A stretch of DNA of 64,000 nucleotides from Candidatus Gorgyraea atricola (lineage in GTDB: Bacteria; Omnitrophota; Gorgyraeia; Gorgyraeales; Gorgyraeaceae). The notes under the pieces were generated by a model that ran no database searches, had not been told where the DNA came from, and saw only the letters and a program-made list of their open reading frames with translations. The stretch's first letter is position 1, and each line of letters starts with the position of its first letter. Location of the stretch: assembly GCA_030765235.1 (NCBI GenBank), contig JAVCCW010000010.1, positions 94,907-158,906 of the forward strand, given 5' to 3'. Positions 3,627 through 62,698 of this stretch are shown here, piece by piece. The position numbers and the translations under genes were made by a program.

Positions 3627-3643
3627 GAGTCACCTTTATTGCT

Positions 3644-3768
3644 GTGGAGGTTACGAAGGTTTCGGAAGGTTTCGGAATGTTGCGGAAGGTTGTCAAAAAG
3701 TTTGAAATCCATAGCTGTTGTAACCTTTCGTAACCTTCTCTAACATTCCGTAACATTCCGTAACCTCC
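3644..3768. repeat. Family B palindromic repeat (ggaggttacgaaggtt...aaccttcgtaacctcc)
   Basis: Long imperfect inverted repeat of acgaaggtt/tcggaa words; other copies at 22313-22420, 36058-36187, 53203-53272; half copy at 12013-12060. Confidence 0.9.
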
Positions 3769-11916: not shown

Positions 11917-12012
11917 ACAAAACCTCCTTATGTTATCGTATCTAGTTTAATTACAAGGGGTAGTGTAACAGTTTCCAATTATGATGTCAAGAATGTTTTA
12001 TTAATATAACTT

Positions 12013-12060
12013 GTGGAGGTTACGAAGGTTACGGAAGGTTTCGCATTTGTACGGCTAACC
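12013..12060. repeat. Family B half copy (tgtggaggttacgaaggttacggaaggtttcg)
   Basis: One arm only. Confidence 0.7.
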
Positions 12061-16887: not shown

Positions 16888-16893
16888 AAATAG

Positions 16894-17018
16894 AAAATCC
16901 CAAATCCCAATAATACCAATACTACCAAATAAATCCCAATTTCAAAATCCCAAACATGTGTTGGGGTTTGGGATTTTGGATTTATTTGGGATTTGGTAGT
17001 ATTTGGATTTGGGATTTA
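16894..17018. repeat. Family A palindromic repeat copy
   Basis: Near-identical to 586-705 and 18210-18334. Confidence 0.9.
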
Positions 17019-17022
17019 TATT

Positions 17023-18183: not shown

Positions 18184-18209
18184 CCTAGTACCTCCTTTTG
18201 AAATACGCA

Positions 18210-18334
18210 AAAATCCCAAATCCCAATAATACCAATACTACCAAATAAATCCCAATTTCAAAATCCCAAACATGTGTTGGGATTTGGGATTTTGGATTTA
18301 TTTGGGATTTGGTAGTATTTGGATTTTGGATTTT
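18210..18334. repeat. Family A palindromic repeat copy
   Basis: Near-identical to 16894-17018. Confidence 0.9.
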
Positions 18335-18394
18335 CTACCATAAATATCTATTACCTTTTAGTTCTGTGTATAATACAGTAAACCTTGTAAAAAG

Positions 18395-20014
18395 TCAAGT
18401 CTTCGGTATCAGCAATACGTCTAACAGCAGCGCCTTAAATGCTATATTCTTCCAGAAATGCTTCCCTTGATCCCTCCCTAAAACAACATCCTTGACCCCA
18501 TGAAAAAATCCCAGGTTCTGCTGCGAATGTTCCTTAGAGATATTATGCGCGGAAAAACGGGCTTCTAAAAAACCTTCTGTTATATCATGCATGGGTTTTG
18601 GATTATCTGATAAAATAGCCCCTACAGATTCAAGGAACTCCCTTGCCGCAATATAGTCAAATTTAGAAGCGCCATATATCTTAAAACCCCTGCATAGAAT
18701 GCCATAGATCTCCTTTATAAATTCCTTTGGATCCTTGATCGCTAATTCCTGCAAACGTTTGCTTCTCATAAACATGTACACAGTAAAAAATAAAAGCCCT
18801 AAAACCACAAGCCACAAAACGCTAATAGATGAGTAATATAAAGGGCCTTTTTTCTTTATTGGTATTAGAGGGGGCAATATCTCAATGTACAGATCATTGC
18901 TAAATGTCCCGAGATAAGACGCAGATACATGCACGCTTCCTTCTTCTTTTGGCTTGAGATTCCCTTGATTATTTATTGATACCTCTGTGCTGCCGCTGGT
19001 CACCCAGTCAACAAGCTTTGTTACTGTAAGAGTAGAGTCATCGCTCATGGTCAATTCCGCTTCAAGTCTAACTTGCTTACCAAGGGGGACCTTATCCGCA
19101 TTTGAGTATATTGTAAGAGCCTTTATCTCAAAAATATCTATTTCCTTATTAAATCCTTCTGCGCGAAAACGCTGCTCGATCGCCTTTTTGGCCTTTCCTT
19201 CTGTCTCTTGTATTAATTCCTCTTGTCTTATCCTTACGCCCTGAGTTTCCCTCTTTTTCTTTATGGCATCTACGAGCTGTTCTTTTTTCCTTTTTTTATT
19301 GTCTTTTAGCTCTTTCGGCGCCTGATGCAATAACTTTAAAAGCGGGATCTTCTCGGGGATCCCTAAAAGCGTAGAGGGCAGTCCCTTTAAAGATAGATTC
19401 TCAAAACGCGGGACAAAGGGATAGACTAGAGACGCGACTATTAAAACAAAAGAAAACATCATTGCAGCCACTTTTATTTGCTGCCATAAACTCATTATCT
19501 TTTCCTGATCCCCCACTATAAGAGAGCCCTTGTTCTTTTTTTCGCATACCAGACTCAAACGCATCGCAAAGATAAAGATAAACAAAAAAACCGCAAGCAT
19601 GACCATATAAACTGGTTCCTGTTCCAGGGCAAGAGAAATGGATGAGATCAAAAGACACACTGCTATAAATTGCAACATAGCATAACTTTTTTCTTCTTTC
19701 AGGCCAAAACTTTGAAAAAGCGTAAGCCATGCCAGGGCTATAGAAAAACCCGTCAGAAGATTATCAAATGTCAAGGCCTTGTCAAAAAGGCCTCCCAATG
19801 TCACGACCACTGCTGCAAGAGACAGCATCCCTATAAAGGTATCTATATGCTGGGGTCTGGATTTTCTGATCCGCCAGCTTACAAGAAAACCTGCGATCGT
19901 ACCAGGTATCAGGAGCGCAGCGACAAAAGGATTTATGATCCCCTGGATGCTAAAAAGTCCTATCAGGACTATCCCCAGATTTGAAAAGTGAAAATATAAC
20001 GCGTCTCTGTCCAC
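18395..20014 (-). CDS. TgpA-like membrane protein (DUF3488 N-terminal TM region, Big_2-like domain, C-terminal DUF4129)
   Basis: Multi-TM N-terminus; C-terminal YIAAREFLESVG..EARFSAH resembles DUF4129; third gene of the MoxR-DUF58-TgpA operon. Confidence 0.55.
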   Translation of the reverse strand: MDRDALYFHFSNLGIVLIGLFSIQGIINPFVAALLIPGTIAGFLVSWRIRKSRPQHIDTFIGMLSLAAVVVTLGGLFDKALTFDNLLTGFSIALAWLTLFQSFGLKEEKSYAMLQFIAVCLLISSISLALEQEPVYMVMLAVFLFIFIFAMRLSLVCEKKNKGSLIVGDQEKIMSLWQQIKVAAMMFSFVLIVASLVYPFVPRFENLSLKGLPSTLLGIPEKIPLLKLLHQAPKELKDNKKRKKEQLVDAIKKKRETQGVRIRQEELIQETEGKAKKAIEQRFRAEGFNKEIDIFEIKALTIYSNADKVPLGKQVRLEAELTMSDDSTLTVTKLVDWVTSGSTEVSINNQGNLKPKEEGSVHVSASYLGTFSNDLYIEILPPLIPIKKKGPLYYSSISVLWLVVLGLLFFTVYMFMRSKRLQELAIKDPKEFIKEIYGILCRGFKIYGASKFDYIAAREFLESVGAILSDNPKPMHDITEGFLEARFSAHNISKEHSQQNLGFFHGVKDVVLGRDQGKHFWKNIAFKALLLDVLLIPKT

Positions 20015-20040
20015 GATCCTTATCCTTAATAACTCGTTGG

Positions 20041-20106
20041 TGTAAAGTGCAAAGTGTCAAGTGTCAGGGCCCTTTTGACACCTGACACCTAAAACCTGAC
20101 ACCAGC
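20041..20106. repeat. Family C palindromic repeat (gtgtcaagtgtcagg...cctgacacctgacacc)
   Basis: Other copies at 41376-41446, 45502-45531/45907-45944, 49389-49421; variant at 42903-42968. Confidence 0.85.
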
Positions 20107-22295: not shown

Positions 22296-22312
22296 GTGTT
22301 CCTCCTGTTTTT

Positions 22313-22420
22313 AGCGAAGGTTTCGTAAGGTTGTGTGAGGTTTCGTTAGGTTGCGTAAGGTTACATTATTGCAACTTCACGAAACATTACGAAACTTTAC
22401 GCAACTTCACGCAACCTCCA
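22313..22420. repeat. Family B palindromic repeat copy
   Basis: gcgaaggtttcgtaaggtt...cgcaacttcacgcaacctcc. Confidence 0.85.
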
Positions 22421-22512: not shown

Positions 22513-22592
22513 GGGCACGGCCCGCGAGTTTGCGCGAGTTATCCACATTGTAGGTGACCCTTAAGGGTCACCTACAATTAGTTGTTTGCGTA

Positions 22593-27462: not shown

Positions 27463-27700
27463 AAAAAACTCTTAATCCATTATAGTGGATTAAGAGTTGC
27501 ACCCTGTTTTCTTCACCCTTTATGACTGCCCTCAGCAGCTCCCTGTTATAGGGAAAAATATATTGTAAGGTTTTCTGACTTAAGGCCGTCTACTCTCTGC
27601 GCCTTCTCGTCCGCCCAAAGCGAACAATGGCTTATTGCAGATTTCGTAACCTATTACAGCAGCGGGGCTGCGCTGGACTCCCACCAGCTTCCCTTAAACA
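27463..27700 (-). promoter_or_regulatory. cobalamin (B12) riboswitch with terminator expression platform
   Basis: Minus strand AAGGGAAGCTGGTGGGAGTCCAGCGCAGCCCCGCTGCTGTAATAGG matches the AAGGGAA..GGTG..A.TCC..GC.G.CCCGC..CTGTAA core; GAAGGC further on. Terminator aactcttaatccactataatggattaagagtttttt at 27463-27499. Candidate promoter TTGACT-17-TATAAA at about 27740-27770. Confidence 0.75.
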
Positions 27701-27771
27701 ACATAATATGAAATATTCAATTGTAAATATTTTATACCCTAATTACTAAAACAAGTCAACAAAAAAATACC

Positions 27772-29552: not shown

Positions 29553-30279
29553 AGAATATCTTGTTTAGTTCTTCGATAGCCAATATGATTCGCGGGCCTG
29601 GTCTTAAAAGGGTATCTGGATTAAAATCCGCATCTTTTGAAAAACTCGTCTTTATAATAATATCCGGATCCCTGTACAATAAAACCTCAGGGCTAAAAAG
29701 GCCATTGTCATCCTTTACATCCTGAGCTATATTATTACCACCTGCCAACCTCACAACATCTCCGATAAACGACGAACCAGTAACAAGCGGATCGTGAAAT
29801 AACTGTACAAAAACCTTGGGTCTATCTGCACCCTTTTTTACTGGTAGATTTTCTATGCGGGTCTTCATATCCTCTATGATAAAGCGGGCCTTATCTTCCC
29901 TATTAAATATCTTGCCAAGCATCAGCATCCTTCCGTGTAGCTCATCCATGCTTTTAGGTGACACCTTTATAATCTTCGCACCCCTTAGCCTTAAATAATC
30001 CATTAGATCAGCATCAAGATCAGCATTCACCAGGATATGGCTTGGCCTTAATAAAATTATCTTTTCTATATTTGGCCTATTAAAACTTCCGACGCGCTCT
30101 ATATCCAGGGCCTTTCTCGGATAATCTGAATACTCATCCACACCTACTACTGACTCGCCAAGTTCGAGGCTAAACAATATCTCCGTAGTATTCGGCGCCA
30201 GAGAAATTATGCGATATTCCCGAGCCATAGCCATGGATGCAATTAATAAAAATAGGCATAAAAATATTATCTTTTTCAA
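29539..30279 (-). CDS. periplasmic substrate-binding protein (BtuF-like, cobalamin/heme class)
   Basis: Signal peptide; RIISLAPNTTEILFSLELGESVVGVDEYSDYP typical of PF01497 binding proteins. Confidence 0.8.
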   Translation of the reverse strand: MKKIIFLCLFLLIASMAMAREYRIISLAPNTTEILFSLELGESVVGVDEYSDYPRKALDIERVGSFNRPNIEKIILLRPSHILVNADLDADLMDYLRLRGAKIIKVSPKSMDELHGRMLMLGKIFNREDKARFIIEDMKTRIENLPVKKGADRPKVFVQLFHDPLVTGSSFIGDVVRLAGGNNIAQDVKDDNGLFSPEVLLYRDPDIIIKTSFSKDADFNPDTLLRPGPRIILAIEELNKIFYEKN

Positions 30280-30800
30280 TACTCTATTCCTTTCCTCGCG
30301 CCAACCTTAGATCTAAAAGGATGTTTTTTATCTATCATTGCCGTCACATAATCCGCATGCTCTTCTATGCCAGAGATATCCCCTCTACCTGTAAGCACCA
30401 ACTCAAGTTCCTGTGGTACACTTTTTAATAATTTGAGGAATTTTTCCTTACTGAAAAACCCTTGATCTATAACATTTATAACTTCATCCAACACCACCAT
30501 GCCATACTTCTTGCTAAACATTACCTTTTCTGCTTCTTTGACCATTCTCTCGATAGCCTTTTTCACCTTCCCTTGTCCCTTGTCACTTGTCACTTGTCCC
30601 ATAAATAAAGGGTGACATTCCTCGCACTTCACAACCTCTATGCTTAACTCCTTAGCCGAAATCTCTTCCCCGCAAACCAGTTTCTCAGGCTTAAAAAACT
30701 GGAACACGCAGACCTTAAGTCCCTGGCCGCTCGCCCTCATTGCCAGGCCAAAGGCCGAAGTAGTCTTGCCTTTTCCATTTCCAGTATAAATATGTATCAT
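30276..30800 (-). CDS. cobO: cob(I)yrinic acid a,c-diamide adenosyltransferase (CobO/BtuR)
   Basis: MIHIYTGNGKGKTTSAFGLAMRA P-loop start typical of CobA/CobO; contains in-frame (cttgtc)-heptamer tract at 30570-30600. Confidence 0.85.
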   Translation of the reverse strand: MIHIYTGNGKGKTTSAFGLAMRASGQGLKVCVFQFFKPEKLVCGEEISAKELSIEVVKCEECHPLFMGQVTSDKGQGKVKKAIERMVKEAEKVMFSKKYGMVVLDEVINVIDQGFFSKEKFLKLLKSVPQELELVLTGRGDISGIEEHADYVTAMIDKKHPFRSKVGARKGIEY

Positions 30801-36026: not shown

Positions 36027-36057
36027 ACTTCCTCCCCTTATTTTTTATTACTTACTT

Positions 36058-36187
36058 ACGTGGAGGTTACGTAAAGTTACGGAAGGTTTCGGAATGTTGC
36101 GTAAGGTTGTATTAAGAGCGTTGGAATCCATCGCTCTTGTAACCTTCGGTAACCTTCTCTAACATTCCGTAACCTTCGTAACCTCCA
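36058..36187. repeat. Family B palindromic repeat copy
   Basis: tggaggttacgtaaagttacggaagg...ccttcgtaacctcca. Confidence 0.9.
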
Positions 36188-41350: not shown

Positions 41351-41375
41351 GTTATCCTATTTCAATAGCGCCTCT

Positions 41376-41446
41376 AGTGTCAGGTTTTAGGTGTCAAGTG
41401 TCAAGGAGCTAAAATCCCTGACACCTTTCACCTGACACTTGACACC
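41376..41446. repeat. Family C palindromic repeat copy
   Basis: agtgtcaggttttaggtgtcaagtgtcaagg...cctgacacttgacacc. Confidence 0.85.
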
Positions 41447-41451
41447 AACGC

Positions 41452-44026: not shown

Positions 44027-44253
44027 CCTACACCCCCTTTTTTCTGTTAACTTTACACTTAAACAAAGCTCCTCTTCTGTAGGCCAGGTTTAAACCTGGC
44101 CTACTTTACGCTGAAGCAAAGCTCAAGTGTAAAGTTATTATATAATCCTAACCCTATAAAGTAAAGTAAATTATCCGCCACCTCCTTTCTACATATAGTA
44201 GACACATCGAGGAGCTAATTTTCTTTCAAAAAAGATTGCTTCTATAATTCATA

Positions 44254-45507
44254 TTGCATATAATAAGACCTATGGAAATATCCTCGCATGTAATATGCAT
44301 TGGCAATGAAATTATGCTTGGCCATATTAATAACACAAATGCCCAGCATATTTCAGAGAAACTCTCCTCTATTGGCATAAAGACTGCAAAGCATCTGTCC
44401 ATTCCTGACGTTCCAAAGGTTATTATTAATTCAATAAAAAATAGTCTAGCCGATGCTAATATCGTTATAGTTACAGGTGGTCTTGGTCCTACTGTGGATG
44501 ACCTGACGCTTGACTGCATCGGAAAGGCACTGGATAGAAAACTCATCTTTAAAGACAGGGTTGCAAACCATATAAGGCAGCATTTTAAAAATCGTAAGTT
44601 AAAGATGCCAAAAAATAACCTGCGCCAGGCACTTATACCTGAAGGGGCAACCCCAATACTAAACAATATAGGCAGCGCCCCAGGCCTTATAATCCAGACA
44701 AAAGGAAAAGTCCTTATTGCATTACCAGGTGTGCCTTTTGAAATGCATGCCATGATAAAAGATACTGTGCTGGGCTTTCTTAAAAAGAGATTCTCTCCAG
44801 GCAGGCTAATAAAATCCCGCGTAATAAAAATAACAGGGCTTCCAGAGTCAAAGGTGAATGAAAAGATCGAGGACATATTGAAGCTGGGTGGCAATGTCCA
44901 GATGGGTATCTACCCTCACCCCGAAGAGATCACAGTAAAGATAACTGTGACTGACAAAAAGGCTGACGCTACAATAAAAAAGATCGAGAGAAAGATAAAA
45001 TCACGGCTGGGAAACTACATATTCGGCTATGATGAAGAGAAATTAGAAGAAGTTGTTGGCAAGCTGCTCTTAAAAAAGAAAAAAACCTTAGCAGTCGCAG
45101 AATCCTGCACAGCCGGACTTTTGGCGAGTAGAATCACAGACGTTTCTGGAAGTTCAAGGTATTTCAAGATGGGTGTAGTTACTTACAGTAATCAAGCTAA
45201 GAATAAACTTCTATATGTGCCTAAAGATACGATAAAACAACACGGCGCTGTCTCCAAACAAGTAGCAAGCGCAATGGCCAAAAACATGCGGCTATTAGCT
45301 GACGCAAGCATAGGAATCGGTATAAGCGGCATTGCAGGTCCAACCGGCGGCACCAAGAAAAAACCAGTAGGCCTAGTCTACATCGCGCTCTCAACAAAGA
45401 AAAAGACCATTTGCAAAGAATTCCGCTTCCTGGGCCAGCGAAATATCATAAAGTTTAAAGCCACTCAAGCAGCCCTTAACCTGGTGAGGCTTCATGGGCT
45501 TGTGTAA
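44254..45507 (+). CDS. cinA: competence/damage-inducible protein CinA (MoCF-binding + PncC deamidase domains)
   Basis: 417 aa; N-terminal VICIGNEIMLGHINNTNAQ..VIVTGGLGPTVDD. Confidence 0.9.
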   Translation: MHIIRPMEISSHVICIGNEIMLGHINNTNAQHISEKLSSIGIKTAKHLSIPDVPKVIINSIKNSLADANIVIVTGGLGPTVDDLTLDCIGKALDRKLIFKDRVANHIRQHFKNRKLKMPKNNLRQALIPEGATPILNNIGSAPGLIIQTKGKVLIALPGVPFEMHAMIKDTVLGFLKKRFSPGRLIKSRVIKITGLPESKVNEKIEDILKLGGNVQMGIYPHPEEITVKITVTDKKADATIKKIERKIKSRLGNYIFGYDEEKLEEVVGKLLLKKKKTLAVAESCTAGLLASRITDVSGSSRYFKMGVVTYSNQAKNKLLYVPKDTIKQHGAVSKQVASAMAKNMRLLADASIGIGISGIAGPTGGTKKKPVGLVYIALSTKKKTICKEFRFLGQRNIIKFKATQAALNLVRLHGLV

Positions 45508-45538
45508 AGTGTCAAGTGTCAGGTGTCAAGGAGGATAA

Positions 45539-45908: not shown

Positions 45909-45944
45909 CGCATTGACACTTAACACCTGACACCTGACACTAAC

Positions 45945-46504: not shown

Positions 46505-46765
46505 TCATCTATAAATCTCTCTTCTATGACCCAGGTCAATGATGTATACGATAAGCCGATTTTTATGAACTGTATATATCACACGGTAACTTCCTACGCG
46601 CAATGAATAGTCGCCTGAAAGTTTACCTTTAAGGCTTTTAGCTTGATAGGGGTCTGTCTTTAGGGCTTCTATGGCAGAGATTAGGCGGGAATACAATTTT
46701 TTGTCTTCTTTGTAAACTTTTCGCAGTTCTTTTGCTGCTGAATTGGCAAATTCTATTTTATACAT
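46505..46765 (-). CDS. RelE/ParE-family type II toxin
   Basis: 86 aa; ..LRVGSYRVIYTVHKNRLIVYIIDLGHRREIY; overlaps antitoxin gene by 8 nt. Confidence 0.8.
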   Translation of the reverse strand: MYKIEFANSAAKELRKVYKEDKKLYSRLISAIEALKTDPYQAKSLKGKLSGDYSLRVGSYRVIYTVHKNRLIVYIIDLGHRREIYR

Positions 46766-47033
46766 CTTTCTCTATCTTTTGCCTCAGCTTAGCTAAGGAA
46801 ATAGTCTTGCCTTCCCCAATCTCCTTCTTTGCCTTTTTTATCCTTCGGGCAACGGTTTTATTAGAAAGAATTTGTATGGTCTCTAAGAGGCCTTCGTAAT
46901 CATCAGGGCTCATCATGATAGCTATAGGTTTTCCTCGCTTTGTGACAATATAGCGATCCAGCCTATCGTCAATATGCTTTATTACTTCTGGTAATTCTGG
47001 TCGTAGTTCTTTTAAGGTAATTGTGTTAACCAT
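46758..47033 (-). CDS. Phd/YefM-family antitoxin
   Basis: 91 aa; ..YIVTKRGKPIAIMMSPDDYEGLLETIQILSN. Confidence 0.8.
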   Translation of the reverse strand: MVNTITLKELRPELPEVIKHIDDRLDRYIVTKRGKPIAIMMSPDDYEGLLETIQILSNKTVARRIKKAKKEIGEGKTISLAKLRQKIEKDV

Positions 47034-49421: not shown

Positions 49422-50150
49422 TTAAGGTTGCCTAATGCCGTCTTTTGTGATGATTAGGGTCTTTTTCTCTCCTTTTTTACCAGGGGTGCCGAGGTTTTTT
49501 CCGTTGAAGGTCAGGGTTACGCCACCAGCATTGCCCAGCTCCAGATCTATCTGCTTTTTTGCTTCCCAACTATCAGAAGCGCCCTTCTTTAATATGCCTC
49601 TAAACAAGAGCTCTTTGCCGCTGGTGACCTGGACCCACGTGTTGTAACGCGCTGCAAGTTCGACCTTAAAACTCTCTGCTACCGCCGCAACCCCGGAGGT
49701 TGCCGTGCTCGCAACCTCCGGGGTTGCGACAACGGCTTGCCCCTTATGTTTAGTGAAAAGATTCCGTATAAACCTTCCCACCTGCACAAAGCCAAAGGCA
49801 AGCAAATACACGCTGAAAATAGTCACAAGCCCGAGTCCGATCTGGCGCTTGTGTTTTAAGAACCAGTCACTTTTGGACTTTTCAGGTTTTAAGGCTAACT
49901 GAGATCCGGGCTTTTTTTCTCCACTTGACAGAAATTCTTTTACTATTCTTTCTTCAAGCGCCCCCAGGAACTGCGAATAGGATTTAATAAAGCCTCTTGC
50001 GTAAAAAGGGTCCGCTGTCTTTAAGATGCTATCTTCTTCTATTGTAGAGATTATTTTCTTAGGTATGCGCGTTCTTTCTGAGACATCTTCTATGGAGAGC
50101 TGCCTTGTTTCGCGGATCTTCTTGAGTGTTTTTCCAAGTGATTCAGGCAT
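49422..50150 (-). CDS. rodZ: RodZ-like cytoskeleton protein (HTH + TM + C-terminal DUF4115)
   Basis: N-terminal XRE HTH LKKIRETRQLSIEDVSERTRIP; single TM; C-terminal domain. Contains GC-rich palindrome at 49687-49727. Confidence 0.7.
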   Translation of the reverse strand: MPESLGKTLKKIRETRQLSIEDVSERTRIPKKIISTIEEDSILKTADPFYARGFIKSYSQFLGALEERIVKEFLSSGEKKPGSQLALKPEKSKSDWFLKHKRQIGLGLVTIFSVYLLAFGFVQVGRFIRNLFTKHKGQAVVATPEVASTATSGVAAVAESFKVELAARYNTWVQVTSGKELLFRGILKKGASDSWEAKKQIDLELGNAGGVTLTFNGKNLGTPGKKGEKKTLIITKDGIRQP

Positions 50151-50151
50151 A

Positions 50152-50236
50152 ATCGTTTAGCCCGTTAGCCCGTTGCCCGTTAGCCCGTTGACCCATTAAC
50201 GGGCAAACGGGCTAAACGGGCAACGGGCTAAACGGA
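50152..50236. repeat. Family D palindromic repeat (cccgttagcccgttgcccgtt.../...aacgggcaacgggctaaacgg)
   Basis: Half copy at 52413-52452. Confidence 0.85.
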
Positions 50237-52411
50237 TTCGGAAGATTCTTCTTCCTTAATCTTGTATTCAGCTATCAGGATCTCTCTTGGCTTACTGCCT
50301 CTAAATGGGCCTACTATGCTTTCCTCTTCCATCGCGTCTATTAATCGCGCAGCCCTGGTGTAGCCCAGCCTGAGCCTGCGCTGCAGCATTGAAACAGAGG
50401 CCTGGCCTGTCTCAAGCACCATCTTTACTGCTTCGTCGAAAAACTCGTCCTTTTTAAAACCGCCTCGCCCAGACATGCTTTTTTTCTGCTGTTCAAGTAT
50501 TGCATCATCATAGATAGGATCTCTTTGTTCCTTTACTGAATTAACGACTTTTTCTATTTCAGCGTCTGTCAGGAGCGTACCTTGCGCGCGTACGGGCTTT
50601 GCGTTGCCAGGCTCTAAAAACAGCATATCGCCCTTGCCCAATAACTTATCCGCGCCATTCATATCTAAAACAGTCCTTGAATCCACTTTCGACGCCACTT
50701 TGAATGAGATCCTTGCTGGAAAATTCGCTTTTATTACACCTGTTACAACATCCACGGACGGCCGCTGCGTCGCGAGTATTATATGTATGCCCACTGCCCT
50801 TGAAAGCTGCGCGAGCCTCGTGATCGCATTCTCAACATCCTGCTGCGCTACTATCATAAGGTCTGCCAGCTCATCTATGATCACTACAAGATAAGGCATC
50901 TTTTCGCTGGATTTCTGGTTAAAGGCGTCTATGTTTCTCGCTACAGCCTTTGCAAGCTTCTTATATCTCACTTCCATCTCACTCACGACCCATTCAAGAA
51001 CGCCTGATGCCTTTTTTGAATCTGTAACCACAGGGCACAGAAGATGCGGCAGGCCATTATAGATAGCCAGCTCCACCATCTTTGGGTCCACCATTATGAA
51101 TTTCAATTCATCAGGCGTTGCATTATATATCATGCTCATTATCAAAGAATTCACGCACACAGTCTTGCCAGAGCCAGTAGTACCCGCGATCAAAAGATGC
51201 GGCATGTCGCCAAGATCTGCCACTACGCTCCTCCCAGCAATATCTTTTCCAAGCGCTATGGCAAGCTTTGAAGAGCCTGCCTGTTTCTGATATTCGCGAG
51301 ATTCAAGGATCTCTCTTAAGCCCACAAGGGATGTACTTTGATTCGGGACCTCTATGCCCACTGCTGATTTGCCCGGTATAGGGGCCACGATCCTGACTGT
51401 AGTCGCCTTCATAGTAAGCGCAATGTCATCACTTAAGGCTGTGATCTTATTCACCTTTACGCCAGGCGCTGGCTGCAGCTCGTACCTGGTAATAACAGGT
51501 CCCTTGTTTATCTCTACCACCTTTGCATCTATGCCAAAATCCTGCAAGGTATCCTCTAATACCCTGGCACTTCCTTCTAAATCCTCGCCCTTAATCTTCT
51601 CTGGCTCAGATGAAGGCATATTTAATAATTCCAAAGAAGGAAGCTTGTAGTCTCCGACTATCCTTGGTGTAAGTTTAACTGGTTTTTTAGGGGCAGGTTT
51701 TGGTTGAGCGAATATCTTAGGTTTTGGCAATACGATCCTCGGCGCAACTGGCCTCTCTACCTTTTTCTCTTCCTTGTCCCTTGTCCCTTGTCCCTTGTCC
51801 CTTGTCCCCAAGTTAACCGCCGGTCTCAACTTAGGCCTATCCTTAACCCTGACCCTCTTCTTGCTCGCCATCCCCGATATCAATTTCCATGCGCGGCCAA
51901 ATAAAAATGAAAAAATAGGTATAATCAAAAACTCTGTAGCAACCATGAGCGACAGGATAGCCAATGCAAGGGTTACTATGTATCCGCCGATCCCGCCAAA
52001 GTATCCAAGAATCTTGCTCGAAACAAAAAAACCAATAAGCCCGCCCCTCTCGACCGAAAGAACAGAATCTCCTGCGGCTGTAAGACTGAAGAACGCGCTG
52101 GCTGAGCTAAAAAGCAGCCCCAATCCTAAAAACCTGAACAAAGGTTTTTGTTCTAATCTTTCAGCGAGAATACCAATACCCCACGTGAAACACAAGAATG
52201 GAATAAGAAAACCCGCATAGCCCACTACCTTAAACACAAGCCACGCAAGATACGCGCCCACTATGCCAATATAATTTCTAACATGCAGATTCGGGGAGGA
52301 TGTTTCAAAGGAAATATCGTAAGGAGAGTAAGAAACCATTGCCGCCAGTAAAATCACTGCCAGCGCGAATAAGCTAAGCGAGATCAGTAAATCTTTCTTA
52401 TCTCTTGTCAT
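50228..52411 (-). CDS. ftsK: DNA translocase FtsK
   Basis: 727 aa; N-terminal TM helices, linker, motor domain with Walker A GTTGSGKT. Linker contains (cttgtcc)x4 heptamer tract at 51775-51805. Confidence 0.95.
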   Translation of the reverse strand: MTRDKKDLLISLSLFALAVILLAAMVSYSPYDISFETSSPNLHVRNYIGIVGAYLAWLVFKVVGYAGFLIPFLCFTWGIGILAERLEQKPLFRFLGLGLLFSSASAFFSLTAAGDSVLSVERGGLIGFFVSSKILGYFGGIGGYIVTLALAILSLMVATEFLIIPIFSFLFGRAWKLISGMASKKRVRVKDRPKLRPAVNLGTRDKGQGTRDKEEKKVERPVAPRIVLPKPKIFAQPKPAPKKPVKLTPRIVGDYKLPSLELLNMPSSEPEKIKGEDLEGSARVLEDTLQDFGIDAKVVEINKGPVITRYELQPAPGVKVNKITALSDDIALTMKATTVRIVAPIPGKSAVGIEVPNQSTSLVGLREILESREYQKQAGSSKLAIALGKDIAGRSVVADLGDMPHLLIAGTTGSGKTVCVNSLIMSMIYNATPDELKFIMVDPKMVELAIYNGLPHLLCPVVTDSKKASGVLEWVVSEMEVRYKKLAKAVARNIDAFNQKSSEKMPYLVVIIDELADLMIVAQQDVENAITRLAQLSRAVGIHIILATQRPSVDVVTGVIKANFPARISFKVASKVDSRTVLDMNGADKLLGKGDMLFLEPGNAKPVRAQGTLLTDAEIEKVVNSVKEQRDPIYDDAILEQQKKSMSGRGGFKKDEFFDEAVKMVLETGQASVSMLQRRLRLGYTRAARLIDAMEEESIVGPFRGSKPREILIAEYKIKEEESSESV

Positions 52412-52412
52412 T

Positions 52413-52452
52413 TTCCCGTTTCCCGTTAGCCCGTTGCCCGTTTAGCCCGTTA
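52413..52452. repeat. Family D half copy
   Basis: cccgtttcccgttagcccgttgcccgtttagcccgttac. Confidence 0.75.
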
Positions 52453-53190: not shown

Positions 53191-53202
53191 ACTTTACAGC
53201 AA

Positions 53203-53272
53203 GAGGTTACGAAGGTTATGGAAGGTTATGTAACGTTCCATAACATTACGTAACATTCCATAACCTCCACGT
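53203..53272. repeat. Family B palindromic repeat copy (short)
   Basis: aagaggttacgaaggttatggaagg...cattccataacctcc. Confidence 0.85.
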
Positions 53273-53282
53273 ATTAAAACAC

Positions 53283-55358: not shown

Positions 55359-55381
55359 TGAAGACTCCCTTTCTTAGTTGT

Positions 55382-55450
55382 AGCTTTCAGCCCTCAACTC
55401 TCAGCTCTCAGCCTTAAAAGCTGAAAGCTGACAGCTGATCGCTGAAAGCT
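55382..55450. repeat. Family E palindromic repeat (agctttcagccctcaactctcagc.../...gctgacagctgatcgctgaaagct)
   Basis: Imperfect inverted repeat between pnp and rpsO. Confidence 0.8.
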
Positions 55451-55524
55451 ATCGTTATAATAAAAGCGGATCTGCCGACCCTAATTACCTGCTTAGCGAC
55501 CCAGGTCGTTAAATCCGCCCTTCA

Positions 55525-55794: not shown

Positions 55795-55821
55795 TTTTCT
55801 CTCCTTTGAGCTGAAATTATA

Positions 55822-56772
55822 CTATTTTTTACCCCTGCGGTCAAGCAATTTCTTCACGACCAACATATATCCCAATATCTTTAACTCATATAATACTATA
55901 AAAGGTAGATTCAATAATATGCCACGTAATGAATCATTCTTTTTTATGCATAAGTATCTATTCTTAATATACCTTCTCTTCAACTCCTCAGAAATACGGT
56001 GGACTAGGGGTTGGGGTGTCCTGTGAGTGGGAGGATCCACACCGGGCGGAGGGGCCCACGAACAGGATACCCCGACCTCTAGTCCACCCGCAGTTCCCCC
56101 TCTCACATGATACGCTAGTGCCTTCGGGTTATAATATGCTTTCCAATCCTTCTTCTGTGCTCTCCAACATAAGTCTAGATCTTCGTAATACATGTCAAAT
56201 CTCTCGTCAAAATATCCATATTTATCCCTTACATTCTTCAGCATGCTTTTTCTTAAAAAAGCGCATGCGCCGCTGGCTCCAAATACATATCCTGGCTCAT
56301 CATACTGCCCCTTGTCTACCTTTCCATAGCCTCTCTCGACTGGCTTTCTATTCTTGCCTAAAAATAATCCTGTTGAATCTATGGTCTTTTTATCCATTCT
56401 TAATATTTTTCCGCTTACCATGCCGATTCGCGTATCAAGACCTATCGCCAATAGAACCTGCCTCAGATAATCTTTGTCCAACACGCAGTCGTTATTCAGG
56501 CATAAGACAAAATTCCCTTTTGACGCATCAATGCCCTGATTCTGCGCTTTACAAAAAAGAAGGTTGCTGGTATTTCTGATCAATTGAACATCCGAATAAT
56601 ACATGGCTACCATCTCGATACTGCCATCGGTAGAGGCATTATCTACAACAATAGTCTCAATATCCTGAAAATTCTGTCCCCTTACGGAGTCCAGACACTG
56701 CCTCAACAAATCTTTCCTGTTGTAATTGACAATTATTATTGATATCATAGATTTAATTATATCATGAATCAA
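55822..56772 (-). CDS. GT2 glycosyltransferase carrying an in-frame 93-nt GC-rich palindromic insertion
   Basis: N-terminal IIIVNYNRKDLL..VVDNASTDGS; C-terminal ..RRYIKNRYLCIKKNDSLRGILLNLPF.. is normal GT2 tail. Between them lies a foreign 31-aa segment AGGLEVGVSCSWAPPPGVDPPTHRTPQPLVH. Confidence 0.8.
   Translation of the reverse strand: MIHDIIKSMISIIIVNYNRKDLLRQCLDSVRGQNFQDIETIVVDNASTDGSIEMVAMYYSDVQLIRNTSNLLFCKAQNQGIDASKGNFVLCLNNDCVLDKDYLRQVLLAIGLDTRIGMVSGKILRMDKKTIDSTGLFLGKNRKPVERGYGKVDKGQYDEPGYVFGASGACAFLRKSMLKNVRDKYGYFDERFDMYYEDLDLCWRAQKKDWKAYYNPKALAYHVRGGTAGGLEVGVSCSWAPPPGVDPPTHRTPQPLVHRISEELKRRYIKNRYLCIKKNDSLRGILLNLPFIVLYELKILGYMLVVKKLLDRRGKK
55997..56089. repeat. GC-rich palindromic element inside GT2 CDS (arms cggtggactaggggttggggtgtcctgt / acaggataccccgacctctagtccaccc)
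   Basis: 93 nt = 31 codons; locally very GC-rich against an AT-rich host gene; reads through in frame. Confidence 0.85.
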
Positions 56773-57945
56773 ACAGAAACCAAACCCTTATCACCCCTCA
56801 TATTTATTCCCTTATTATCCCTTATCTTCATCCGGCCTTTCATCTCTGGCCTTGCATACCCGGCCTTTGAGATGTTTTATGAAAACATCTTGATATTCCT
56901 TGCTATCATGATCTTATTCATGGAAAGATCCAGATTTAAACTGTATCCTAAAAATTTCAGTAACTTCCCTGTAATATTCCTATTATTTGCCTATGCTATT
57001 TCAACTATATTCTCGATCAACATACAAAACTCTATTAGAGAAACGCTTAAATTCATCAGTTTCTTTGCCATATTCTTTATGGTTTCCCAATCTGATGAAA
57101 AACAAAAGAAACTGCTGCTAAAGACCATTGTCATAGCTGCTTCAATAATAAGTCTGTATTCAATATACCAGTACTTCTGGGGATATGGACGCACACTAGA
57201 TTATCTACAAAAAACCAACAGCGATTTTCTCTCCACCTCTTCCTATGCCCGCGACATCCTGCTCTCAAAACGCGCAATAGGAACATTTCCCTCTCCGAAT
57301 ATCTTAGCTGGATACTTGATAATAATGTTTTTTCTCGCAATGCACTTACAGCGTCGCATTTCGCTAGTTCTAATCACTGCTGCGTTAATCCTCACTAAAT
57401 CCATGGGCGCGTGGTTAAGTCTTATTGCTGCACTGATCTACCTCGGTAACTTCGTAAGTTACCCAAAGGGTAACTTACGAAGTTACCGAGGTAAGTTAAT
57501 GGCAGTATTAATCGTAGCTATACTATGTTTTATCCTCGTGAATCGCTGGGAACGCCTGATGAACATGGAAAACCCGCAAAATTCCATTACCCAGCGCCTA
57601 AACTACTGGCGCACAGCCATAGCCATAATAAAAGATCAGGCTATTTTTGGAGTCGGACCTGGTAATTTTCAAGAAGTCTTCTTGGGGCATAAGGTAGGCT
57701 TAGGCACAGATACAAGATACGCGCATAACATATTTCTTCACATATGGTCAGAAATAGGTATCTTAGGTCTTGTAGGAGTCTTTTACCTTATTATTAATTT
57801 TTTCAGAAAAGCCAGATCTCAATCCAGCTATAGATTTATACTGTGCGGCGGGCTTGTGTTTATCCTGCATAATCTCATAGATAATACCTTTTTCATGCCT
57901 CAAGCTGCACTCTTCTGGTGGATATTACTGGCTTCTAAGGAATAG
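56764..57945 (+). CDS. O-antigen ligase/polymerase family membrane protein (Wzy_C domain)
   Basis: 393 aa polytopic membrane protein. Contains in-frame perfect palindrome at 57441-57491. Confidence 0.7.
   Translation: MNQTETKPLSPLIFIPLLSLIFIRPFISGLAYPAFEMFYENILIFLAIMILFMERSRFKLYPKNFSNFPVIFLLFAYAISTIFSINIQNSIRETLKFISFFAIFFMVSQSDEKQKKLLLKTIVIAASIISLYSIYQYFWGYGRTLDYLQKTNSDFLSTSSYARDILLSKRAIGTFPSPNILAGYLIIMFFLAMHLQRRISLVLITAALILTKSMGAWLSLIAALIYLGNFVSYPKGNLRSYRGKLMAVLIVAILCFILVNRWERLMNMENPQNSITQRLNYWRTAIAIIKDQAIFGVGPGNFQEVFLGHKVGLGTDTRYAHNIFLHIWSEIGILGLVGVFYLIINFFRKARSQSSYRFILCGGLVFILHNLIDNTFFMPQAALFWWILLASKE
57441..57491. repeat. Perfect 24-bp-arm palindrome inside O-antigen ligase CDS (cctcggtaacttcgtaagttaccc-aaa-gggtaacttacgaagttaccgagg)
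   Basis: 51 nt = 17 codons encoding LGNFVSYPKGNLRSYRG; words ttacgaag/cttcgtaa relate it to family B. Confidence 0.85.
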
Positions 57946-59605: not shown

Positions 59606-60760
59606 CTATTTTTTAGATGTCCTTTTGAATGTCTCAAGCGATGCAGCGCGGGCATGGGCTACTTCGCAAAAATAATCTACCGGCTTATCTAATTCTCCTG
59701 TCTCTAAATGAGCGTGTGCTGGACACCAGGTACAGAGATTGATGATAGGGCAGATCCGGCATTTCTTCAAAAAATCTTCTCTTTTTGAGCGTTTATCCCT
59801 CACCCGAAGGACAAAATTCCGATATGCTTCAAGTAATGTCCCATTCTTAAGGTCATAGACACAATCCGGATGCCAGAGCGAAGAGCAAAGTCGGAAAAAA
59901 CCGTCATAGCTTACCGCAAAACTGCCGTTGCCTGCGCCGCAATGAAAGAGATGATCACAGTTAGTGTGAGCAAAATCAGGGTCAATGAACTTGCCGCAAG
60001 ATTCTTCTAATGCCTTGAAACGTTCTGAGTCATTTTTTTCAATTGAAACTATCTCTTCAGGAAGAAGCCGCTCGGATCTTATTTCTTTATTTCTTCCTGT
60101 ATCACCGTCAAAACGAAGATGCAAAAACGGATCAAAACGGAAATAATCCTTGGTCTTTTGCCTGCAAAATTGAGAAATAACAGTTAATTCATGGATGTTT
60201 GAACGCAGGGCCATTGTCTTAAGGCGCACCTTGATCTTGTTTTTGAGCAGAAGATCTAAGCCTTTCATAAAAGCATTGAAGGAGCCTGGATTTCTGGTTA
60301 CCTTCTCATAGGTTCCTTTAGTCGCGCCGTATACTGTTACTTCAATGTTGCGCGGCGGGTACCTTTTGAAAAATTTAATGTGTCTTTCTGTTATCAATGT
60401 AGCGTTAGTAAAAACCGAGACTAAAAGGCCTTTTTTCTTGAGATGCAGATATATATCAAAAAAATCTTCCCTTAAAAGAGGTTCGCCTCCTGTAATCAGG
60501 CACCACAATGCTCCTAAATCAGCTGCCTCGTCAATGATATTCTTTATCTGCTGAAACTTGAGCTCTTTTGATTTCGCGCAAGAATCTCCTGCTGGTAAAT
60601 TTATATAGCAGTGTCTGCAATTATTGTTACAGCGCGCGGCAATCTCTAAGTCAAAAGAGATAAGCTGCCTATTATTCTTCATCTTGTTCCAAAGGGAAAA
60701 CCGAGGCAAGGAAACTCGGGACACAAAAGATCTTTTCATGATATCAAACTCTTGATCCAA
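59606..60760 (-). CDS. radical SAM/SPASM-domain peptide maturase (paralog 1)
   Basis: CNNNCRHC (Cx3Cx2C), GGEPLL, C-terminal Cys-rich SPASM region ..CRICPIINLCTWCPAHAH.. Confidence 0.85.
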   Translation of the reverse strand: MDQEFDIMKRSFVSRVSLPRFSLWNKMKNNRQLISFDLEIAARCNNNCRHCYINLPAGDSCAKSKELKFQQIKNIIDEAADLGALWCLITGGEPLLREDFFDIYLHLKKKGLLVSVFTNATLITERHIKFFKRYPPRNIEVTVYGATKGTYEKVTRNPGSFNAFMKGLDLLLKNKIKVRLKTMALRSNIHELTVISQFCRQKTKDYFRFDPFLHLRFDGDTGRNKEIRSERLLPEEIVSIEKNDSERFKALEESCGKFIDPDFAHTNCDHLFHCGAGNGSFAVSYDGFFRLCSSLWHPDCVYDLKNGTLLEAYRNFVLRVRDKRSKREDFLKKCRICPIINLCTWCPAHAHLETGELDKPVDYFCEVAHARAASLETFKRTSKK

Positions 60761-61224
60761 AAAATAAAAGATAATAATCTTGTCTTGCTCAAAAAAGCAA
60801 TTATAAACCGTTCCAGGCCAAAACCAAGTTGAGTTTTCCTGCCTGCCCTTTCTACTTTCGACACAACGCCTAAAATGTCCTTCATTGGAATCAAACCGTC
60901 AGTCTCAACAGAGTTATCTCCTTTTATAAGATAATAATCGCCTTTTTTACCTACTACTCTATGAATAACAAGCCTCCCTGTCTGAGCGTGGATAAAAGCT
61001 ACTGGCTTACCAAAACCTATTGGATGATCAAGCAGCGGGGAAATAGTAACTACATCGCCATTTTTAATAAACGGTGACATGCTAAAACCCATAGCCTTAA
61101 ACCTAAAAGGAATTCTCATGCCAGTGGCAGCTTGAAGCAATCCAGTCATTGCTTCCCCTGAAAGAGAAAGTTCTTCTTCAGGAACTACGCAATATCCTGC
61201 TTTAATCTCGCTTGACTTCAACAA
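60736..61224 (-). CDS. S24/S26-family serine peptidase (candidate leader peptidase)
   Basis: 162 aa; GFSMSPFIKNGDVVTI resembles the catalytic Ser region of signal peptidase I / LexA-like peptidases. Confidence 0.6.
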   Translation of the reverse strand: MLKSSEIKAGYCVVPEEELSLSGEAMTGLLQAATGMRIPFRFKAMGFSMSPFIKNGDVVTISPLLDHPIGFGKPVAFIHAQTGRLVIHRVVGKKGDYYLIKGDNSVETDGLIPMKDILGVVSKVERAGRKTQLGFGLERFIIAFLSKTRLLSFIFWIKSLIS

Positions 61225-61504
61225 GCATTCTCCTTTTGAGTAATTCTTCGACCAGCCCTAATACATCTTTTTCTATTTCTATCTTAGATGATTCAAATTC
61301 TGCCCCCAGATCATCCGCTAAATCTTTTAAGCTTTTTTTTCCATCTATCCTGCGCCAAATTGCCTGTCCGGTCTCATTGAGACTAAATATCGCATCTTCT
61401 AAATCCGCTACCCCTGAAGTTATGGGAATAATAATAAACTCTCCTTGTATCTCTCGCGCGACTATATCTTCAGACGGTTTATAAACACTTTCGATGTGGC
61501 CCAT
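61202..61504 (-). CDS. PqqD-family peptide chaperone (RiPP recognition element)
   Basis: 100 aa; ..LNETGQAIWRRIDGKKSLKDLADDLGAEF.. typical PqqD fold signature. Confidence 0.8.
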   Translation of the reverse strand: MGHIESVYKPSEDIVAREIQGEFIIIPITSGVADLEDAIFSLNETGQAIWRRIDGKKSLKDLADDLGAEFESSKIEIEKDVLGLVEELLKRRMLVEVKRD

Positions 61505-61525
61505 AAATACCTCCTTCGTTTTCGG

Positions 61526-62698
61526 TTATTTTGTAAATTTCCTGATCCGATCCTTCCCGTCCTTGATCTCCCATGCCATTTCACCTTCTTTTATCAGGCC
61601 CAGAAATCTTGCCTGAGCATGGGCAATTTCACAATAATATTCTACCGGCGTATCTAAGGTGCCGCTTTCTAAGCAGGATTTTGCAGGACATTGCGCGCAC
61701 AGGCCTTTTAAAAAACATTTAGCACAGCGATTTAAATAATCAGGATTGATAGCTTTTATCTCTCTTACTTTTGGAAAAAAATTAATCAGCGCATCTTTAA
61801 GAGAACCCTTTTTAAGATCATAGACTGTCTCCTTCTGTCTAAGCAACATACAGGGCTGAAACATACCATAAGCATCCACGCATCCGCTGGCACGGCCGGC
61901 CCCGCAGGAAAAAAGTCTATCACCAGATGGCCGCATAAATTTTGAGCAAAATTCTTTCATATTATTAAGGTATCTATTTTTTTGGCGGGTAAGAACTCTA
62001 AGTCCCTGCTCTGGCGTAACTCTGAGTTTTTTAATTGATTCATTTTTCCGACTATCATACCTGCGCCGCAGGTTAAAAAACATAGAATAAGGCGGCGATT
62101 TGCCTATCCATGGAATATTTTTAGCCCATTTCTCGAATTCATCGATTTCATCTTTGTTAGGCGGCAGTAACGAGCTTTTCACTATAAAAGGGGTCTTTTT
62201 CTCCAGTAGTAAATTTATGCCCCGCCAGGCCGCTTCAAATGAACCGGAAACCCTGGTTACGCCTTCATACGAGGCCTTTCTCATCCCGTAAACTGTAACC
62301 TCCACTTTTTCTAAGGGCGGGATATGACTCAATAGATCAGCTAATTTAGACGTAATCAAAGTGGCATTGGTAAAAAGCAATACCTTTAAACCAAGCTTCC
62401 TCGCGAAAACATATAATTCCTCAAAATCATCCCTTAAAAGCGGCTCCCCTCCTGTAAACCGTACTGTAAGGCAATCCAGAGAAACTGCTTCCTTGAGAAT
62501 ATTTTTTATCTGACTAGTAGATAACTCTTTATCTTTGGCATTCAAATCACCTTCCGGCAGATTTATGCAGCAGTGAATACAGTTATTATTACAGCGTTCG
62601 GTAAGTTCTATATCCAAACTACCTAAAACTGGCATGCTATTCTTCCACAATAAAGCTTTACTTGTTTCCTGTTTTTTAACGTAAAGACTGCTCTTCAT
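61526..62698 (-). CDS. radical SAM/SPASM-domain peptide maturase (paralog 2)
   Basis: CNNNCIHC, GGEPLL, SPASM Cys cluster ..CAKCFLKGLCAQCPAKS..; paralogous to 59606-60760. Confidence 0.85.
   Translation of the reverse strand: MKSSLYVKKQETSKALLWKNSMPVLGSLDIELTERCNNNCIHCCINLPEGDLNAKDKELSTSQIKNILKEAVSLDCLTVRFTGGEPLLRDDFEELYVFARKLGLKVLLFTNATLITSKLADLLSHIPPLEKVEVTVYGMRKASYEGVTRVSGSFEAAWRGINLLLEKKTPFIVKSSLLPPNKDEIDEFEKWAKNIPWIGKSPPYSMFFNLRRRYDSRKNESIKKLRVTPEQGLRVLTRQKNRYLNNMKEFCSKFMRPSGDRLFSCGAGRASGCVDAYGMFQPCMLLRQKETVYDLKKGSLKDALINFFPKVREIKAINPDYLNRCAKCFLKGLCAQCPAKSCLESGTLDTPVEYYCEIAHAQARFLGLIKEGEMAWEIKDGKDRIRKFTK

Follow-up and report, generated by a model that had tools for sequence, protein, structure and literature searches.

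The window analysed here, a stretch of 64,000 nucleotides (nt) from contig JAVCCW010000010.1 (positions 94,907 to 158,906) of the bacterium Candidatus Gorgyraea atricola (Omnitrophota), carries a gene for a family-2 glycosyltransferase (GT2) inside which a GC-rich palindromic element of 93 nt lies in frame (Table 1). The GT2 product is on record as P0001 (MDP8229997.1; 100% identical), a protein of 308 amino acids (aa) that starts with MISIII at 56748 and is annotated as a GT2 protein from a 174-kb contig of the metagenome-assembled genome (MAG) of Candidatus Gorgyraea atricola, Omnitrophota. In the window, the gene belongs to a neighbourhood with the order Wzy_C-like gene (divergent), GT2, rpsO, pnp, uppP, ftsK and rodZ, and because this order recurs in the loci of GT2 relatives, the GT2 genes of those loci are true orthologs (loci are given L numbers below, proteins P numbers).

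The element, whose sequence at 55997-56089 is CGGTGGACTAGGGGTTGGGGTGTCCTGTGAGTGGGAGGATCCACACCGGGCGGAGGGGCCCACGAACAGGATACCCCGACCTCTAGTCCACCC, is an imperfect palindrome with a G+C content of 67%, against 41% in the host gene; it ends in GGTGGAC...GTCCACC and has an internal CTAG. Its two arms, 27 nt each, differ from full complementarity by three mismatches, all of them transitions, which become G.U pairs on the + strand (antisense to the gene) and A.C oppositions on the - strand; a repeat finder stretches the arms to 34 nt at 85% complementarity. When the whole window was searched for this arm pattern with up to three mismatches allowed, just these two arms were found, with 0 expected (100 shuffles). 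As RNA, the + strand folds at -72.3 kcal/mol (z = -6.2) and the - strand at -63.7 kcal/mol (z = -3.9), and none of 200 shuffles was as good in either case. The apical core of 37 nt between the arms (its sequence is also given as GTGGGCCCCTCCGCCCGGTGTGGATCCTCCCAC) is weakly palindromic. In the GT2 frame the element amounts to 31 codons with no stop, encoding AGGLEVGVSCSWAPPPGVDPPTHRTPQPLVH between YHVRGGT and RISEELKRRYIKNRY; since three of its six frames are open, the lack of a stop in the GT2 frame is unremarkable by itself. The first-pass annotation of this DNA had described a GC-rich palindrome here, and 31 stop-free codons in frame in a GT2 gene, and both descriptions were upheld.

Table 1. 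Coordinates of the palindromic element, its host gene and other hairpin features of the window (a dot marks a feature without strand).
Feature	Position	Strand	Details
Host gene, family-2 glycosyltransferase (GT2)	55822..56772	-	Longest open reading frame 316 aa; Pfam Glycos_transf_2, 3e-27
Variable linker of GT2 protein, residues ~226-264	55981..56097	-	Between GT-A catalytic domain (...AYHVRGGT) and C-terminal helices (...ELKRRYIKNRY...)
In-frame GC-rich palindromic element, 93 nt / 31 codons	55997..56089	-	Limits as set in the first-pass annotation; palindrome proper 55998-56088
Main stem, left arm	55998..56024	.	GGTGGACTAGGGGTTGGGGTGTCCTGT on + strand; arm search and repeat finder
Main stem, right arm	56062..56088	.	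ACAGGATACCCCGACCTCTAGTCCACC on + strand; arm search and repeat finder
Apical 37-nt core	56025..56061	-	TCGTGGGCCCCTCCGCCCGGTGTGGATCCTCCCACTC on - strand; 37/37 identity to L093 250-286, flanking stems differ
Sigma-70-like promoter	55816..55844	-	Strong; TTGACC-17-TATAAT, 11/12; at GT2 3' end, downstream of element, just before rpsO
24-nt GTAGG hairpin, intergenic	22551-22574
24-nt GTAGG hairpin, intergenic	44080-44103		24-nt core is that of the in-frame GT2 hairpin of L016
Perfect 26-bp hairpin	57439-57493		TACCTCGGTAACTTCGTAAGTTACCC aaa GGGTAACTTACGAAGTTACCGAGGTA; in frame in Wzy_C-like gene 56764-57945(+)
Perfect 18-bp hairpin, 72% GC	49686-49728		CGCAACCCCGGAGGTTGC cgtgctc GCAACCTCCGGGGTTGCG; in frame, variable linker of RodZ-like gene 49422-50150(-)
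Tandem-unit intergenic hairpins, group 1	3643-3768, 12012-12054, 22298-22378, 36057-36187, 53199-53273
Tandem-unit intergenic hairpins, group 2	20037-20106, 41374-41449, 45499-45533, 45914-45944
Tandem-unit intergenic hairpins, group 3	50154-50241, 52415-52451
Tandem-unit intergenic hairpins, group 4	30569-30600, 51763-51808

The element occupies the one stretch of the GT2 protein that tolerates almost any length and sequence, namely the linker that joins the GT-A domain to the C-terminal helices. When 30 orthologs were aligned, conservation reached as far as ...AYHxRGGT and resumed at ...ELKKRYIxNRY, the part in the middle being variable. Across about 120 homologues the linker ranges from 0 to 63 aa and is most commonly 18 aa long; it exceeds 18 aa in about 25 of the homologues having both landmarks (maximum 63 aa), measures 36 aa in the window by the same landmarks, and is deleted in the GTDB ortholog L015. 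An AlphaFold2 model of the GT2 protein has residues 224-259 at a pLDDT below 50 and free of secondary structure, followed by the C-terminal helices at 262-313, although with a model of moderate quality (mean pLDDT 63.5, other regions low too) this disorder of the insert is supportive rather than proof. Sequence matches in the PDB cover the N-terminal half of the protein only and are silent on the linker.

The closest syntenic orthologs, about 81-83% identical at the nucleotide level, are without the element. Thus the insertion claimed in the first-pass annotation stands insofar as the element is absent from these orthologs at the variable linker, but it is not a plain addition of 31 codons: about 13 codons were replaced in the ancestral linker, of which only the ...ISEEL end is still recognizable, and the net gain is 54 nt, or 18 codons (290 aa in the closest orthologs, 308 aa as annotated here). 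Across lineages, insertions at the linker start 0-6 codons past RGGTA, a scatter that fits a permissive region struck repeatedly rather than one exact nucleotide.

Other hairpins stand at this linker in the relatives. In L001 (86% aa identity) the sequence is CACAAATGTAGGGGAGGTTTAAACCTCCCCTACATTTGTG, which forms a perfect 18-bp stem with a GTAGG...CCTAC core and encodes HKCRGGLNLPYIC, and L091 has the same hairpin with GGTTTAAACC turned into GCCTTAAGGC, still a perfect 18 bp, such that the four differences between the two hairpins make up two compensatory pairs, the genes themselves being 88% identical at the nucleotide level. The linkers of L016 (GGTAGGCCAGGTTTAAACCTGGCCTACC) and L017 (GTAGGGGAGGCTTAAGCCTCCCCTAC) each carry a 24-nt GTAGG hairpin, and L012 too has a GTAGG...CCTAC hairpin at the site. 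A separate family, GTCATTGCGAG...CGAAGCAATCTC...GAGATTGCTTCG...CTCGCAATGAC with more hairpins nested inside, is found at the linkers of L005, L003 and L089 and encodes CHCE..KQSQ..LLRFARND-type peptides; compared with L005, L003 has 33 more nt in frame, consisting of a 28-nt GC-rich hairpin and one extra CTTCG pentamer. Judged by peptide patterns, the 120 homologues include at least eight unrelated long linker forms, and the linker peptide of P0049, RAGL-SVLRSFSGGG-NLPY, corresponds to a hairpin nested in a hairpin. Five loci (L008, L009, L010, L018 and L019) have no real hairpin at the linker. The GT2 linker is thus a recurrent landing place for hairpins of differing sequence. The first-pass annotation had tied its insertion to the absence of the segment from orthologs; the sequence of the segment is indeed not shared by them, but the hairpin site itself is.

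Separately, the C-terminus of GT2 orthologs forms a second palindromic hot spot (alignment columns ~385-430; L005 ~3330-3400). Many of the orthologs terminate there in LDSAFGLARTIFFERAKRAEKKK-type peptides, coded by a CTCGACTTCGCTCGAAC...GTTCGAGCGAGCGAAG hairpin that the window gene does not have.

When the in-frame peptide was run, without a profile, against 1.84 billion representative proteins, a single credible match emerged, P0124 (84 aa; 86% identity over 21 aa, E = 9.5e-4). P0124 comes from L093, a 657-nt contig of a separate assembly (ENA ERZ23495143) with an unrelated context, in which positions 96-445 form a near-perfect nested palindrome of about 355 nt (-331 kcal/mol, z = -32). The apex of that palindrome (250-286) and window 56061-56025 agree at 37 of 37 positions, and blastn aligns the window element with L093 over 55 nt at 90.9% identity (E = 5e-15). 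The stems beside the core (GGGGTATCCTGT/ACAGGACACCCC in the window, GGGGTCCTCTGC/GCAGAGGAACCCC in L093) are related, with compensated substitutions and indels between them, and the L093 palindrome, which is layered from different hairpin families, has as its outer layers the GTCATTGCGAGG and GCAATCTC modules of the GT2 inserts of L003, L005 and L089. The family of the element is defined by a conserved apical 37-nt core on stems that change by compensation, and these alignments indicate that it has at least two members in independent assemblies. The other matches of the protein search (P0121-P0123) proved to be repetitive proteins, P0122 and P0123 tandemly so, aligned in several short stretches, and were set aside as non-relatives.

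A palindrome in a MAG, with its exact protein recorded from a single contig, could be an assembly or amplification artefact, that is, a chimeric or inverted join. However, the frame is kept and the flanks align cleanly with the orthologs, the element is not an inverted copy of adjacent DNA, and analogous hairpins stand at the site in orthologs from many assemblies. As an independent assembly supplies the L093 sibling, whose hairpin shares the core and has stem differences that are compensated, an artefact is very unlikely, and we give it next to no weight.

These Omnitrophota genomes are full of hairpins of several families, mostly placed just after genes and repeatedly in frame in permissive loops. 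One family of 24 nt, GTAGG-N5-TT(T/A)AA-N5-CCTAC, is spread over Omnitrophota genomes, again mostly just after genes: apart from the two intergenic copies in the window, L088 has five (region 13504-19802; four just after genes and one at a gene 3' end), L017 has four (region 9948-11024) and L012 has two, and L008 has one in frame within its Wzy gene. The stems of this family show double changes at 5 of 11 pairs; the 100% pairing among the copies is circular, these having been picked for pairing. Overall, the window holds 15 strong hairpins (about 0.1 in shuffles), three of them inside open reading frames (ORFs; GT2, Wzy-like and RodZ-like), and 18 of 59 hairpins in 354 kb of Omnitrophota loci lie inside ORFs.

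The hairpin in the window's Wzy_C-like gene illustrates the in-frame habit. It is also found in the L003 ortholog, and L003 has an intergenic sibling of it at 1415-1465; at the same site L091 has a perfect 25-bp hairpin with many compensatory changes relative to the window, and in L005, L008 and L090 a stretch of about the same length is present but has no hairpin. Among Wzy orthologs, hairpin-encoded stretches occur at four positions, each in some lineages only, and GTCATTGCGAG-type peptides are found in the Wzy genes of L003, L005 and L091 as well. Hairpins nested in hairpins are seen in L093, L003, L089, the P0049 peptide and L017, where a GTAGG hairpin (10971-11024) has another hairpin inside its TTAA loop. 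The hairpins of these genomes tend to occupy or adjoin pre-existing hairpins and are repeatedly found in permissive loops, which accounts for different hairpins at the same GT2 linker across lineages.

These patterns bear on a second alternative, namely that the palindrome formed on the spot, when an older short linker hairpin was replicated or repaired with template switching or fold-back synthesis, and is no copy of a repeat. The element is palindromic to its centre, decaying towards the middle, and the hairpin that the closest orthologs have at the site could seed such events. In addition, each 24-nt hairpin copy has its own outer stem, an extra 8-15 bp peculiar to its locus, which resembles an inverted copy of one flank. 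Against this, the L093 sibling combines an identical 37-nt core and related stems with another context and another assembly, the 67% GC of the element is foreign to a gene of 41% GC, and the element matches no local sequence. We consider such a local origin quite improbable.

As a third alternative, selection may have kept the hairpin for a cis-acting role of its structure, in the GT2 mRNA or in the DNA, rather than as a mere passenger: it might be a site of processing by RNase III or otherwise, it might govern the stability of the mRNA, or it might make translation pause ahead of the membrane-associating C-terminal helices. Any strong hairpin at the site would then suffice, so that turnover of sequence with kept structure would be explained. 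Several of the above results agree with this, namely the hairpins of unrelated sequence at the same linker in many orthologs, the perfect 18-bp stem kept by L001 and L091 through two compensatory pairs, the hairpin at the Wzy site that is perfect in both the window and L091 despite many compensatory changes, and the apical core kept at 37 of 37 positions in two contexts with varying stems. On the other hand, many orthologs are hairpin-free (the five loci named above) or, like L015, without the linker, and members of these hairpin families are also scattered through intergenic DNA and other genes. Perfect stems with alternative complementary variants are, moreover, known behaviour of sub-families of repetitive extragenic palindromic (REP) sequences (PMC3733652), and the shift of the insertion points between lineages fits a permissive region better than a precise position.

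More specific regulatory roles found no support. Neither strand yielded a terminator-like call at the element, and 58 conserved GT2 codons are still translated in frame downstream of it; an intrinsic (Rho-independent) terminator, with no U-tract or terminator call and with translation running on, was therefore rejected. The promoter at the 3' end of GT2 likely drives rpsO, and because it lies downstream of the element, the hairpin falls outside the rpsO leader transcribed from that promoter, which disposes of an rpsO-leader role. In Rfam 15, no family reached its gathering threshold, the matches being those of generic long-hairpin miRNA models at 16-35 bits, against thresholds of 70-100. Taken together, we regard a selected cis-acting role as unlikely, although it is the chief rival of the reading that follows.

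The reading that we favour, and hold to be likely, is that the segment is an intragenic copy of a dispersed hairpin-forming DNA repeat, a selfish or neutral palindrome akin to REPs, REPINs or Rickettsia palindromic elements (RPEs). Such a copy would be transcribed and translated with GT2, adding to the enzyme a disordered Gly/Pro-rich loop of 31 residues, and it would persist by virtue of a length that is a multiple of three, the lack of a stop in the GT2 frame and its place in a permissive loop, provided that selection spares only copies that are in frame, free of stops and in tolerant loops. The element would be neutral, or nearly so, and need not serve the enzyme. The repeated hits on the linker could reflect either its tolerance or an attraction of new hairpins by resident ones, and the candidate movers are a single-strand, hairpin-recognizing tyrosine transposase as for REPs, and template switching or gene conversion between hairpins.

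Several results weigh against a dispersed repeat. First, no second copy of the element was found in the 64-kb window or in 370 kb of related loci, and scans for the exact arm sequences gave no true copy in GTDB representative genomes, JGI metagenomes or IMG/VR, though these scans used the arms, which are the variable part of the element, on collections evidently without the window's own genome. Second, the element and its flanks have no target-site duplication and neither a GTAG nor a CGTC tag, and no transposase was found among the 24 window ORFs scanned with Pfam or in the gene tables of the related loci. Third, a core that is 100% identical while its stems diverge is unexpected for a purely selfish element and could indicate function. 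Finally, the placement of all three arm mismatches as G.U pairs may count against a repeat, yet it would arise by chance about one time in four; read as a strand preference these pairs are likewise not significant, and L093 shows none.

Further searches for copies were equally empty. A covariance model built from the two known copies found nothing else in the 370 kb, a scan of IMG/VR with the 37-nt core found nothing, and BLAST of the element against plasmids and phages returned 0 matches. Word-indexed protein searches, both with the six frames joined and with a 43-aa in-frame peptide, gave nothing and are uninformative: this type of search missed P0001 itself, which a local phmmer run recovers at E = 2e-11, such that its negatives on Gly/Pro-rich inserts are untrustworthy. 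The single match of the arms in JGI metagenomes, L007, was rejected as a chance, non-palindromic match in a GC-rich contig.

Palindromic repeats inside genes are known from other bacteria. In-frame RPEs in Rickettsia and in-frame MITEs, the miniature transposable elements with inverted repeats, have been reviewed (PMC10969869), and GTAG- and CGTC-tagged REPs have intragenic copies in several species, most numerous in Opitutus terrae, of the same PVC superphylum as the Omnitrophota, and in R. conorii (Di Nocera et al., PMC3733652). The same study describes intragenic REP clusters encoding 43-82 aa, REPs lying within larger palindromes, and, in two Xanthomonas species, recB genes that carry different REPs at roughly one site (PMC3733652).

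The first-pass annotation had likened the element to RPEs, and as a functional analogy the comparison is apt. RPE-1 to RPE-10 (Ogata et al., 2000; 2002, via PMC10969869 and PMC3733652) are, like the window element, hairpin repeats in frame in functional genes, translated as an extra surface segment with which the host protein is compatible, and their size is in a similar range (about 100-150 bp, compared with a 91-nt hairpin); as with RPEs, moreover, a repeat family of foreign composition is involved. Membership of the RPE family is another matter. The host belongs to the Omnitrophota and not the Rickettsiales, and CGTC/GACG, the tag criterion of PMC3733652, occurs nowhere in the 93-mer. RPEs number dozens of copies per genome; for the present element, the 64 kb of the window hold one copy, and an unrelated contig holds a sibling; the window element replaces part of a linker, at a site re-used by unrelated hairpin families in orthologs; and its family signature is the conserved apical core, in contrast to the encoded peptide conserved across the whole element in RPEs. 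By host and tag, then, the window element lies outside the Rickettsia RPE family, a separation made without direct alignment to the RPE consensus.

The second system for comparison is that of GTAG REPs, REPINs and their REP-associated tyrosine transposase, RAYT (PMC3733652; PMC3116915). Those repeats too are GC-rich stem-loops, mainly located after genes, with sub-families that differ by complementary changes; they too occur inside larger palindromes, occasionally in frame in ORFs and sometimes at the same site in orthologs, and the stems of the window element and L093 similarly keep their pairing through compensated substitutions and indels around an identical core. The description suits the 24-nt GTAGG...CCTAC hairpins, both those in the GT2 linker of relatives and the intergenic copies in the window. 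The window element, however, has no GTAG, ends in GGTGG...CCACC and is 91 nt long, against 20-40 bp for a REP unit; its arms are not REP-like palindromes themselves, unlike those of a REPIN; and no RAYT gene was seen in the window and related loci. On tag, size and sequence it is outside the canonical GTAG-REP family.

MITEs that form in-frame fusions (such as ERIC, Coxiella QMITEs and Correia; PMC10969869, PMC5896051) resemble the element in being small, non-autonomous and intragenic, with inverted-repeat ends, and in adding residues to their host protein. They differ in that the flanks of the window element (...ACTGCG and GTATTT...) share no direct repeat and thus give no target-site duplication, in that no parent insertion sequence or transposase is known, and in that the whole element is one hairpin rather than a pair of terminal repeats around a unique middle.

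Selfish palindromes in genes are a known phenomenon, of which this is a new example rather than a novel type of system, in a phylum where it has not been noted before. The words palindrome, hairpin and inverted repeat are absent from the text of two Omnitrophota genome papers, and a full-text literature search for Omnitrophota together with palindromic gave nothing relevant.

A bolder idea, which we put forward as a doubtful one, is that the hairpins of Omnitrophota are hairpin-homing elements, each family being recognized by a conserved apical core and inserting preferentially in the apex or arms of resident hairpins, or else that the core is a regulatory binding site for a protein or RNA of the host or the element. 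If homing were true, it would build nested palindromes, such as the 355-nt one of L093 and the L017 GTAGG hairpin with a hairpin in its TTAA loop, and it would make hairpin-bearing loops (the GT2 linker, the four Wzy sites, the RodZ linker) into self-renewing landing pads. Miniature mobile DNA would then have a way of spreading that has not been described, and proteins of envelope biosynthesis a steady supply of new loop sequence.

Several further features of the window were recorded. In many of its intergenic hairpins, one arm is made of short tandem units (GGTTACGAAG.., TGACACC.., CCCGTTAG.., TCCCTTG..) whose complements make up the opposite arm, and a few motif families are found at several loci (groups 1 to 4 in Table 1). 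Inverted arms of the TGACACC family, those at 45499-45533 and 45914-45944, flank a gene for a 23S rRNA-intervening-sequence protein (PF05635; 45516-45908, +), which sits between cinA and ligT; L088 and L090 are without a gene there. Between rpsO and pnp, a 71-nt imperfect hairpin of AGCTGA-type units (window 55381-55451) has a counterpart of the AGCTGA type at the equivalent position of L005 (4042-4112). In E. coli, the pnp leader processed by RNase III is located between rpsO and pnp.

Adjoining the Wzy and GT2 genes, Radical-SAM, PqqD and ABC-transporter genes (59606-62698, -) form an arrangement that is kept in L088, L090 and L091 and that looks like a peptide-modification cluster of the kind that makes ribosomally synthesized and post-translationally modified peptides (RiPPs). 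Farther away are a cobalamin riboswitch (RF00174, 87 bits; 27548-27743, -), near a corrinoid adenosyltransferase gene (30276-30800), and a ParE toxin/Phd-YefM antitoxin pair (46505-47033, -).

Three aspects of the present case are noteworthy: that many hairpin families recurrently occupy a single linker, that giant nested palindromes exist, and that the apical core is conserved. Rickettsia and a handful of REP-rich bacteria are the best-known carriers of in-frame palindromic repeats, and the GT2 element extends the phenomenon to the Omnitrophota, an uncultured phylum of the PVC group. There are practical consequences as well. Gene callers and protein clustering will take such segments for real protein, although peptides such as CHCE..KQSQ..LLRFARND and GLNLPY are translated repeats, and such hairpins, giant palindromes like that of L093 included, may break short-read assemblies, which would fit the many short contigs met with here. 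The 37-nt core offers a tangible starting point in the search for whatever machinery moves these hairpins, and the GT2 linker and the Wzy loops are a natural experiment that shows where envelope enzymes can accept arbitrary insertions.

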